From sequence record OY720014: DNA of 64,000 bases; one strand, written 5' to 3'. The notes beneath the pieces were generated by a model. It saw nothing but the letters and a program-made list of their open reading frames with translations. It had not been told where the DNA came from and made no database searches. The translations under genes and the position numbers were made by a program. Each line of letters starts with the position of its first letter. The first letter of the stretch is position 1. Positions 15,992 through 17,147 of this stretch are shown here, piece by piece. Source of the DNA: Escherichia phage vB_Eco_QOTSP.

Positions 15992-16446
15992 TGGAATTTA
16001 AAGACTTTTCAACGGGTCTTTATGTAGCAGCTAAGTTTTCAGAATTAACACTTGATGCGCTGGAAGAACTTCAGCGCTCTTTACGTGTTCCTAATCCAGT
16101 TCCTAGAGAAAAAATTCATTCAACTATATGTTATTCGAGAGTAAATGTTCCATATGTTCCATCGAGTGGAAGTTTTGAAGTAGCTTCTTCTGGACATTTA
16201 GAAGTATGGAAAACACAAGATGGATCGACTCTTGTACTTGTGCTAGATTCTGAATATCTGCGTTGTCGACACATGTATGCGCGGGCACTAGGTGCTACAC
16301 ATGATTTTGATGATTACACACCGCATATAACATTGTCTTATAATGTTGGACCCTTATCATTTAGCGGTGATGTACAAATTCCGGTCGTATTAGATCGTGA
16401 ATACAAAGAGCCTCTTAAACTCGATTGGGCAGATGATTTAAAATAA
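15991..16446 (+). CDS. 57B: 2H phosphoesterase gp57B (Acb1 anti-CBASS nuclease)
   Basis: 151-aa ORF directly after 57A; two H-x-T/S-x motifs (HSTI, HITL) typical of the 2H phosphoesterase fold. Confidence 0.8.
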
Positions 16447-16465
16447 TTTCACAAAGTTGTTTACA
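16435..16465 (+). repeat. 31-bp direct repeat, copy 1 (gene end plus promoter -35)
   Basis: gatttaaaataatttcacaaagttgtttaca, identical to 16766..16796. Confidence 0.9.
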
Positions 16466-16488
16466 TACTGATGAGGTAGTGATACTAT
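16459..16488 (+). promoter_or_regulatory. early promoter (GTTTAC -35, TACTAT -10)
   Basis: GTTTAC, 18-nt spacer, TACTAT; -10 sits in the loop of inverted repeat gaggta...tacctc. Confidence 0.65.
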
Positions 16489-16519
16489 TACCTCATCAAA
16501 ATTAATTAGGAAAATAAAA

Positions 16520-16777
16520 ATGAAAACTTTCAAAGAGTTTGCTACAGAAACTATTATCACTGAATCTTCTCATGGTATGGAAGTAAAGCTTGGAATGGCT
16601 TTAGCTGAAGCTGAGCGTCTTTTTTCTCGTATTAAAGAACTTGCTGCTGCAGTCGATCCTTCATCTTTTAAAGGAGACCAAACTAAAGTTAAAGCACTTT
16701 TAGCATTATGCTCTGATGCAGGAGAAATCGCTAAGAACGGTTCTAAGATGAAGAAACGATTAGAAGATTTAAAATAA
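16520..16777 (+). CDS. small internal-protein-like protein with capsid-targeting-like N-terminus
   Basis: 85-aa ORF starting MKTFKEFATE, resembling the MKTYQEFIAE capsid-targeting sequence; own early promoter. Confidence 0.6.
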   Translation: MKTFKEFATETIITESSHGMEVKLGMALAEAERLFSRIKELAAAVDPSSFKGDQTKVKALLALCSDAGEIAKNGSKMKKRLEDLK

Positions 16778-16796
16778 TTTCACAAAGTTGTTTACA
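16766..16796 (+). repeat. 31-bp direct repeat, copy 2
   Basis: Identical to 16435..16465. Confidence 0.9.
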
Positions 16797-16819
16797 CGGG
16801 GTTTTAGTAGTGATACTAT
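16790..16819 (+). promoter_or_regulatory. early promoter (GTTTAC -35, TACTAT -10)
   Basis: GTTTAC, 18-nt spacer, TACTAT inside inverted repeat; followed by CCTATCAAAA box. Confidence 0.65.
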
Positions 16820-16855
16820 TACCCTATCAAAACAAATGTGAAATTGGAGAATAAA

Positions 16856-17089
16856 ATGAAAACGTATCAAGAATTTATTGCTGAAGCTGCTGATGTAAAA
16901 GTTGAGTTTATTTACATTGGCAAGAAAGATAAAATGGGCGAAATGCCTCATGGAGTTCTTCGTGATGCATTAGATAATTTCGGTCAACTCGCCGCAGAAG
17001 ATTACGGTGATAAAATTGTTGTTACTGGTCCGGCTGCAGTTATTGAAAAATGGGCAGCAGAAAATAAATCAATTTTTCGTAAAAAATGA
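16856..17089 (+). CDS. internal-protein-like protein (capsid targeting sequence MKTYQEFIAEA)
   Basis: ORF track 16838..17089 trimmed to ATG 16856 after GGAGAA; N-terminus MKTYQEFIAEA matches the T4 internal-protein targeting signal. Confidence 0.65.
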   Translation: MKTYQEFIAEAADVKVEFIYIGKKDKMGEMPHGVLRDALDNFGQLAAEDYGDKIVVTGPAAVIEKWAAENKSIFRKK

Positions 17090-17119
17090 GTTTACTTTTA
17101 GATAGGGTAGTGATACTAT
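17090..17119 (+). promoter_or_regulatory. early promoter (GTTTAC -35, TACTAT -10)
   Basis: GTTTAC immediately after the upstream stop; -10 in loop of gatagggta...taccctatc. Confidence 0.65.
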
Positions 17120-17147
17120 TACCCTATCAACTACTGAGGAGAATAAA

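Follow-up and report, generated by a model that had tools for sequence, protein, structure and literature searches.

By what route are short genes gained, lost and replaced at a fixed site in T-even phage genomes, and what do the exchanged genes encode? These questions are raised by the segment between genes 57B and trna.4 of Escherichia phage vB_Eco_QOTSP (OY720014), which lies in a stretch of 64,000 nucleotides (nt) that was analysed as a whole (the window, to which all coordinates refer). It belongs to a T6-like Tequatrovirus, of which it forms the ipI-type hyperplastic locus, with the gene order 57B(Acb1) / ip5 / ip6 / trna.4, in which 57B on the left and trna.4 on the right are the constant anchors. 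Exact repeats of 31 and 24 bp are found at the cassette boundaries, and we infer these to be local footprints of cassette recombination. Taken jointly, the identity of the locus, its architecture and the role of the repeats in recombination are proposed here with high confidence. The locus, its genes and the idea of promoter/stem-loop shuffling are already known, having been in the literature since 1994; the stretch adds one further T6/PST-type genome, and the base-level mapping of its junctions is confirmatory detail.

Identity and gene content of the locus

A preliminary description of this DNA, made from the letters alone, had placed a variable internal-protein locus here, consisting of three consecutive cassettes with small open reading frames (ORFs) between 57B and the tRNA cluster. 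The genes of the locus are given below, the start of ip6 being taken as the ATG behind a GGAG in place of the upstream GTG used in the mechanical ORF list.

15991..16446, + strand: 57B, encoding Acb1, an anti-CBASS phosphodiesterase (Pfam PF23474, E-value 2.6e-60; gp57B in T6 and PST)
16520..16777, + strand: ip5, 85 amino acids (aa), N-terminus MKTFKEFATE (PHROG 3499)
16856..17089, + strand: ip6, 77 aa, N-terminus MKTYQEFIAEA (PHROG 8111)
17148..17333, + strand: trna.4, 61 aa, starting MKRCEL (PHROG 1692; annotations in related phages)

The assignment to a variable internal-protein locus was borne out, as the first two ORFs are the named genes ip5 and ip6. Ip5 was matched by PHROG 3499, "internal head protein" (E-value 7.8e-50), and Ip6 by PHROG 8111, "internal virion protein" (E-value 6.4e-52); the match to Ip5 in UniRef belongs to a cluster labelled "Ip5" (phages T2 and RB70), and in the relatives T6, PST, JB75 and ASO78A the ORFs are annotated as Ip5 (IpV), Ip6 (IpVI) and trna.4, with a named internal-protein annotation in PP01 as well. 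Units one and two are thus internal-protein genes, and the third unit is trna.4, whose product is hydrophobic (grand average of hydropathy 1.22), has neither an L/I-x-E motif nor a targeting motif, and is a membrane protein outside the internal-protein class. The order relative to 57B and the tRNA cluster also stood, with the correction that about 1.8 kb of further ORFs precede the first tRNA (19176). A 1.76-kb stretch covering the locus shares 97–98% identity with its counterparts in phage T6, Shigella phage JK23 and Yersinia phage PST; it is found at full length in 193 phage records, and its 716-bp core in 160.

Exact repeats at the cassette boundaries

The 31-bp sequence GATTTAAAATAATTTCACAAAGTTGTTTACA occurs exactly twice in the window, with 0 copies expected (100 shuffles, up to 3 mismatches allowed). 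Each copy spans a gene end and the -35 element of the next promoter, in agreement with the perfect repeat reported in the preliminary description, and the gene ends within them read ...DDLK* in 57B and ...EDLK* in Ip5. The gene ip6 is flanked by a further exact repeat, of 24 bp (GTAGTGATACTATTACCCTATCAA), which that description does not mention.

16435..16465, + strand: 31-bp repeat, copy 1 (last codons and stop of 57B, A/T-rich block, -35 element)
16766..16796, + strand: 31-bp repeat, copy 2 (last codons and stop of ip5, -35 element of P2)
16807..16830, + strand: 24-bp repeat, copy 1 (left edge of the ip6 cassette; the PP01 junction maps here)
17107..17130, + strand: 24-bp repeat, copy 2 (right edge of the ip6 cassette)

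Early promoters and associated hairpins

The pattern GTTTAC-N18-TACTAT was observed at 10 sites in the window, where 0.44 would be expected, and three of these, at 16459, 16790 and 17090 (spacing 331 and 300 bp), precede the genes of the locus. P1 and P2 were picked independently by a generic promoter scan (TTTACA-17-TACTAT with a TG extended -10). All three read GTTTAC-N14-gtgaTACTAT, with 2 mismatches to the T4 early-promoter consensus GTTTAC-N14-gtggTAttaT (Miller et al. 2003, as given in the record of ASO78A). Furthermore, the 47-nt element beginning at the GTTTAC of P1 (16459-16505) has the same sequence as the promoter of T4 ipI, and the site equivalent to P1 is labelled a T4 early promoter in the annotation of ASO78A. 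P1, P2 and P3 are consequently predicted, from their sequence, to be T4 early promoters.

16459..16488, + strand: early promoter P1 (GTTTAC 16459-16464; TG-extended -10 TACTAT 16483-16488)
16790..16819, + strand: early promoter P2 (pattern match and generic promoter scan)
17090..17119, + strand: early promoter P3 (pattern match; lacks the upstream ATTTCACAAAGTT block)
16469..16498, + strand: hairpin 1, 13-bp stem and 4-nt loop around the -10 (-17.4 kcal/mol, z-score -5.6)
16798..16825, + strand: hairpin 2, interrupted stem GGGGU..UAGUA / UACUA..ACCCU around the -10 (-14.6 kcal/mol, z-score -3.5)
17101..17128, + strand: hairpin 3, 12-bp stem (-16.4 kcal/mol, z-score -4.2)

Every -10 element of P1–P3 lies within a hairpin (loop or stem) whose stability is well above that of shuffled controls, so that the three promoters with a -10 inside an inverted repeat, as read earlier from the sequence, were recovered both as pattern sites and by folding. 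Hairpins 1 and 3 differ by two compensated pairs (GATGAGG/CCTCATC and GATAGGG/CCCTATC). Across phages, all 20 distinct promoter elements of the locus fold at -10 to -18.5 kcal/mol, with the centre of the hairpin shifting relative to the -10 between element classes, while the sole early promoter from outside the locus in that sample, upstream of e.8 (PST:6562/T6:6409), folds at -1.5 kcal/mol. The start of the transcript is expected about 7 nt past the -10, inside the right arm, and the hairpin would therefore form only in read-through RNA or in DNA. An Rfam search over 15900-22300 returned only tRNAs, placing the hairpins outside the curated RNA families.

Among the early promoters elsewhere in the window, hairpins were found at 22505 and 37417, and none at 22168, 39118 or 49854. 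The two at 22505-22551 and 37417-37463 are strong hairpins over the -10 (z-scores -5.0 and -4.3) outside the internal-protein loci, and the promoter at 37417 is followed by the leader CTATCAAAACAAA, which is the same as that of the ip6-type slot. The promoter/hairpin design is thus not confined to internal-protein loci.

Cassette variation between phages

The same 57B-trna.4 interval was compared in eleven other phages. Between the anchors, the following gene contents were found.

T4: ipI
PP01: ip5
The window, T6, PST, JB75 and ASO78A: ip5-ip6
Ozark: ipI-ip6
RB3: ip5-ipI
G8: ip7
MX01: ip9-ip7
LF82-1: ipI-like, then ip7
CM8: ip5-ipI-(3' fragment of 57B)-ip5-ipI-ip8

The junctions between alternative architectures fall inside the block formed by promoter, hairpin, leader and targeting signal. 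In PP01 the second promoter corresponds to P2 of the window up to ...TACCCTATCAA and then continues as the P3 leader; this junction lies within the 24-bp repeat, exactly as would result from a crossover of its two copies, and ip6 has been cleanly lost or gained. In the P2 of RB3, a left hairpin arm of one class is joined to a right arm of a different class; the resulting hairpin is weaker, and the crossover is placed in the -10 loop. Other exchanges map to the start of the coding sequence: the Ip7 payload is preceded by MKTFKEF in G8 (slot-1 leader) and by MKTYQEF in MX01 (slot-2 leader), and Ip6 starts with MKTFKEF in PST as compared to MKTYQEF in T6. These swaps show that the first ~21 nt of coding sequence travel with the leader and not with the payload.

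The C-terminus of 57B, (D/E)DLK*, is found in three genera, and the last codons of ip5, GAAGATTTAAAATAA (EDLK*, 16763-16777), copy the 3' end of 57B (16432-16446). The RB69 homologue of Ip5, encoded at the e-denV locus, matches Ip5 up to ...RLE and then diverges (RB69 interval 1680-1720). Together, the 57B-like end and the RB69 divergence suggest that the last codons of the Tequatrovirus ip5 and the next -35 region were copied from the 57B 3' end, and the C-terminus of the Tequatrovirus Ip5 thus looks chimeric.

CM8 carries a tandem duplication (interval 1-2460; 57B / ip5 / ipI / 57B 3' fragment / ip5 / ipI / ip8), at one joint of which a promoter leader runs straight into mid-57B. This joint is illegitimate, and the arrangement could be a real duplication or a misassembly.

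The preliminary description had proposed that cassettes are exchanged through promoter repeats and had named an alignment of the locus across T-even genomes as a check; in the comparison made here, cassettes were gained, lost and replaced at junctions within the promoter repeats. Its choice of the 31-bp block as the exchange site was supported and had to be widened, since crossovers were also placed in the -10/hairpin region, in the leader and in the first ~21 coding nt. The mapped boundaries (31-bp and 24-bp repeats, and targeting-codon crossovers) show swap points for host-range engineering in T-even phages.

Predicted processing and distribution of Ip5 and Ip6

Packaging, according to a review of Black's work, needs no more than the initial 10 residues of IPIII (MKTYQEFIAE), with residues 4 and 7 serving targeting and residues 8 and 10 processing, and the gp21 protease cleaves after L/I-X-E. 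The N-terminus of Ip6 is identical to this capsid-targeting sequence in 10 of 10 positions. Ip5 starts MKTFKEFATE, with Phe at positions 4 and 7, and shares its first seven residues (MKTFKEF) with T4 IpI (MKTFKEFTSTTTPVSTITE/A). Sites of the gp21 type are present in all three proteins (I8-A9-E10 in Ip6, I13-T14-E15 in Ip5 and I17-T18-E19 in T4 IpI). The ITE-SSHG junction of Ip5 is invariant in 5 homologues even though the preceding residues vary or are deleted, and the RB69 homologue has L13-N14-E15 at the position of ITE15. The T4-type capsid-targeting N-termini that the preliminary description had noted in two ORFs were hence found in both, as a full match in Ip6 and as an IpI-type start with an ITE site in Ip5.

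By their targeting sequence, gp21-type site, polymorphic locus and named family, Ip5 and Ip6 would be classed as T-even internal proteins. Mature Ip5 is predicted to be ~70 aa long and basic (pI 9.2; 13 Lys and Arg in 70 aa), and mature Ip6 ~67 aa long with a predicted pI of 6.8. Both are probably packaged in the head. No report of Ip5 or Ip6 in processed form in heads, or as injected proteins, was found in literature searches by protein name, which were in part swamped by inositol-phosphate papers.

When searched with tblastn, the mature Ip5 payload was found in 494 phage records, of which 231 are at least 99% identical and 226 are RB69-like at ~54% identity, and the Ip6 payload in 230. Ip5 (~490 phage records) and Ip6 (~230) are thus widespread candidates for injected proteins. 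The Ip5 homologue search gave only 5 close clusters and therefore no deep alignment. Neither protein was matched in Pfam, NCBIfam or PADLOC, and PDB sequence searches gave none or only chance-level matches for both. In AlphaFold models, Ip5 forms two long helices in a helical hairpin (predicted local distance difference test score, pLDDT, 74) and Ip6 a small alpha/beta domain of the order beta-alpha-beta-beta-alpha-beta (pLDDT 70). Foldseek comparison with the PDB returned generic ferredoxin-like or designed helical-hairpin matches, none with an E-value of 0.001 or below. Mature Ip5 and Ip6 showed no likeness to T4 IpI (IPI*) by sequence comparison or Foldseek, and no homology to the GmrSD inhibitors IPI*, IPII and IPIII was detected by sequence, PDB or Foldseek searches. 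An assignment of function from sequence or structure matches was rejected as these searches were uninformative.

A candidate route for late expression

Upstream of the locus, two further genes precede 57B.

Ending at 15749, + strand: deoxynucleoside monophosphate kinase (gene 1), from the ORF listing
15749-15991, + strand: 57A, from the ORF listing

The late-promoter motif TATAAATA was found at 15386-15393, inside gene 1 and 363 bp before its end. It is kept in 7 of 8 related loci checked, at the same position in T4, T6, PST, PP01, RB3 and G8 and at -357 in LF82-1, and is the sole candidate late promoter upstream of 57A, 57B, ip5 and ip6. Late read-through from this site is a candidate route by which Ip5 and Ip6 might be supplied at prohead assembly.

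Proposed mechanism and alternative explanations

In the scheme that we propose, each gene is preceded by a composite element of ~70–100 bp, comprising an A/T-rich block, a T4 early promoter with its -10 in a hairpin, and a conserved leader with a ribosome-binding site; the elements of the ip genes also carry the first codons of the capsid-targeting sequence. The near-identity of the elements, both inside one phage and from one phage to another, could allow homologous recombination to add, delete, replace or duplicate the short payloads that they enclose, presumably by the general pathway and either within one genome or between co-infecting phages. Ip5 and Ip6 would be made as precursors, led into the prohead core by the N-terminal targeting sequence and trimmed by gp21, Ip6 after IAE10 and Ip5 after ITE15. 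Entering the cell together with the injected DNA, they would then be the first response of the phage against host defences.

The repeats might instead be a by-product of selection for a strong early-promoter consensus, with the differing gene sets arising from unrelated illegitimate events. T4 early promoters do share an extended consensus, to which the ten pattern sites in the window conform; those at 22505 and 37417 likewise carry hairpins, and motifs of the leader, CTATCAACTAC among them, are also seen at promoters away from the locus. However, the 31-bp identity takes in 12 nt of coding sequence and a stop codon, which is beyond what promoter constraint explains, the junctions between architectures coincide base for base with shared blocks, and hybrid hairpins exist (RB3 P2, PST P3). 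The illegitimate joint in CM8 shows that both kinds of event occur, with the homologous ones dominating the sample, and selection on promoters as the whole explanation is considered very improbable. A recent duplication, or an error of assembly, confined to this genome has a negligible chance of being the source of the tandem units: misassembly can yield tandem repeats with exact boundaries, and a perfect 79-bp tandem duplication is present elsewhere in the window (18703-18860), but the ip5 and ip6 payloads are unrelated in sequence and the same arrangement, including both 31-bp copies, is found in T6, PST, JB75, ASO78A and over 150 further independent genomes. This explanation was rejected on the comparative data, and homologous exchange between the composite elements is preferred.

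As to what the payloads do, an alternative is that Ip5 and Ip6 are packaged but serve the virion itself, by charge neutralisation, DNA organisation or aid to ejection. The basic character of mature Ip5 fits such a role, as does literature on T4 heads in which lysines of internal proteins contact DNA phosphates; the near-invariance of Ip5 across 231 records and the reported behaviour of ip4-10 towards GmrSD (below) can be counted on the same side. Mature Ip6 is nevertheless near neutral, and many related phages carry neither or only one of the two genes, which marks them as dispensable for virion function. Moreover, all three characterised members of the class (Ip1, Ip2 and Ip3) are specific defence inhibitors, and the locus adjoins another counter-defence gene, that of Acb1. 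A role that serves only the virion is on balance regarded as unlikely.

Evidence bearing on counter-defence and on the scheme as a whole

Antagonism of host defence by these proteins is already the working hypothesis in the field. Ip1, Ip2 and Ip3 have been shown to inhibit one GmrSD type IV enzyme each, a different one in every case (Silas et al. 2025, PMC12373910), and for Ip5 and Ip6 we put the chances of an anti-defence role at even. If such a role is true, their position directly downstream of Acb1 would make the region an island of injected plus early counter-defence functions.

Several results weigh against this role or against other parts of the scheme. When ip4-10 were assayed against active GmrSD variants, no reproducible inhibition was seen, and in the same study GmrSD-ECOR21 and GmrSD-ECOR17 were found to restrict T6 (Silas et al. 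2025, PMC12373910). The challenge with GmrSD that the preliminary description had suggested for the cassette ORFs has thus largely been done for ip4-10, with an outcome that does not favour its expectation. The near-invariance of Ip5 is unlike a rapidly adapting antagonist, the variation being one of presence or absence, and the structural models are of moderate confidence, have no informative fold match and allow no functional inference. With regard to processing, position 8 of Ip5 is Ala and not Ile or Leu, which makes cleavage at E10 doubtful, and ITE15 was for this reason used as the predicted site. No late-promoter motif was found between 57B and ip6, the nearest on the + strand being that at 15386. 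Finally, a terminator scan found no canonical intrinsic terminator at the hairpins, whose stems lack a U-tract and which would be no more than putative terminators; the annotators of ASO78A, unlike the scan made here, label them terminators.

Further internal-protein candidates in the window

Two more ORFs with similar N-termini had been pointed out in the preliminary description, MKSYTQFLNEA at 21526 and MKTYQEFIAEA at 26857, and both are as stated.

26857..27330, + strand: ip4, 157 aa (PHROG 3155; annotated as Ip4 in ECML-363 and ime09)
21526..21999, + strand: ORF of 157 aa starting MKSYTQFLNE/AVLNE/A (PHROG 2280, "unknown function")

The ip4 gene lies at the second internal-protein locus, directly after denV and without a promoter of its own. 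For Ip4, NCBIfam gave only matches far below threshold, and no other match was found in Pfam or PADLOC. The ORF at 21526-21999 has a leader resembling a capsid-targeting sequence with two L-N-E gp21 sites, and upstream of it are a terminator hairpin and the late-promoter motif TATAAATA (21478-21485). In ime09, CrRp10 and ZCEC15 both this promoter and the N-terminus are conserved; in Kha5h the conservation was seen for the protein, N-terminus included. In total, the ORF is present in ~390 phage records; it is labelled "hypothetical" in those examined and is not called in Kha5h. No match was found in Pfam, NCBIfam or PADLOC. The ORF may encode an unrecognised internal protein at a third site, and is the only item here that may be unrecognised so far.

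A wider proposal would be that Ip5 and/or Ip6 counter a first-line defence beyond the GmrSD variants screened and, separately, that 21526-21999 is an unrecognised internal-protein gene at a third site with its own late promoter. This proposal is tentative, and we consider it rather doubtful.

Neighbouring rearrangements

At 18703-18781 and 18782-18860, 79 bp are perfectly duplicated in tandem, and an ORF of a 165-aa family (PHROG 2290) is thereby split into 18486-18803 and 18808-19089. The closest relatives are ~83 bp shorter at 18703-18860, which indicates either a genome-specific frameshifting duplication or an assembly artefact. Between 17737 and 18222, a rare 455-bp insertion carries the ORF 17819-18199 (126 aa, PHROG 4301) and is flanked by a 31-nt direct repeat of 87% identity that corresponds to the start of trna.2 (17737-17767 and 18192-18222). 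The insertion leaves a truncated trna.2 start upstream, and the whole stretch is found in only 2 of 667 matching phage records; here again, an inserted gene is bordered by the duplicated start of a gene. A GIY-YIG homing-endonuclease ORF (19420-20070, 216 aa, PHROG 314) lies between tRNA-Gly and tRNA-Ser (region 19342-20166), where PST has tRNA-Pro. The tRNAs of the window (Gln, Leu, Gly, Ser, Thr, Met, Tyr, Asn, His and Arg) form a set unlike those of T6 and PST.

Comparison with known systems

Integron cassettes resemble the locus by analogy only, as arrays of short, exchangeable, promoter-proximal ORFs with repeated recombination sites containing inverted repeats. They differ in that the locus has no dedicated integrase or attC-type site and in that each of its cassettes brings its own promoter. 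Among internal proteins, T4 Ip1 (IPI*), Ip2 and Ip3, which are injected inhibitors of GmrSD-family enzymes (Bair et al. 2007; Silas et al. 2025, PMC12373910), share with Ip5 and Ip6 the targeting leader, the gp21 site, the loci, the small size and the presumed delivery with DNA, whereas mature Ip5 and Ip6 have no detectable sequence or fold similarity to them or to PDB entries.

The closest precedent is the 1994 study by Repoila, Tetart, Bouet and Krisch (EMBO J 13:4181), whose abstract reportedly describes an 11-residue leader, a ~70-bp flanking element and an early promoter with an overlapping inverted repeat. As recounted in Arbiol et al. 2010 (PMC2839356), Repoila et al. 1994 found PeSL-like sequences at two highly variable T-even internal-protein loci. 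The T-even elements contain T4 early promoters and weaker, AT-rich stem-loops, are analogues and not homologues of the RB49 PeSLs, and are possibly responsible for the plasticity of the internal-protein loci (PMC2839356). The proposal that a shuffled palette of internal proteins alters host range is attributed to Repoila et al. 1994 by Comeau et al. 2014 (PMC4122927), who give the same account of the elements, and the recognition of at least 10 internal proteins by their N-terminal signal by Silas et al. 2025 (PMC12373910).

Like the PeSLs of RB49/phi1, PST/T4 and nt-1/KVP40, the elements described here are small promoter plus stem-loop cassettes that bound non-essential ORFs in hyperplastic regions, and lie at indel or replacement junctions between close relatives for which homologous recombination has been proposed (PMC2839356, PMC4122927). 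The composite of promoter and stem-loop and the location of the junctions are thus shared; the sigma-70-like promoters and GC-rich terminating stems of PeSLs are not, as the locus has T4-type promoters and AT-rich stems without polyG/polyC. Its stem-loops overlap the -10 itself, have no U-tract and coincide with no terminator-like site in the scan. As far as its content is relayed in the later papers, Repoila et al. 1994 describes the same 57B-tRNA locus, names ip5 and ip6 among ~10 genes with a conserved N-terminal leader, and contains both the T4 early promoter with an overlapping inverted repeat and the shuffling/host-range proposal. Compared to that account, nothing essential differs in the present genome, and the 24-bp repeat, the chimeric-looking Ip5 end and the crossovers in the targeting codons add detail.

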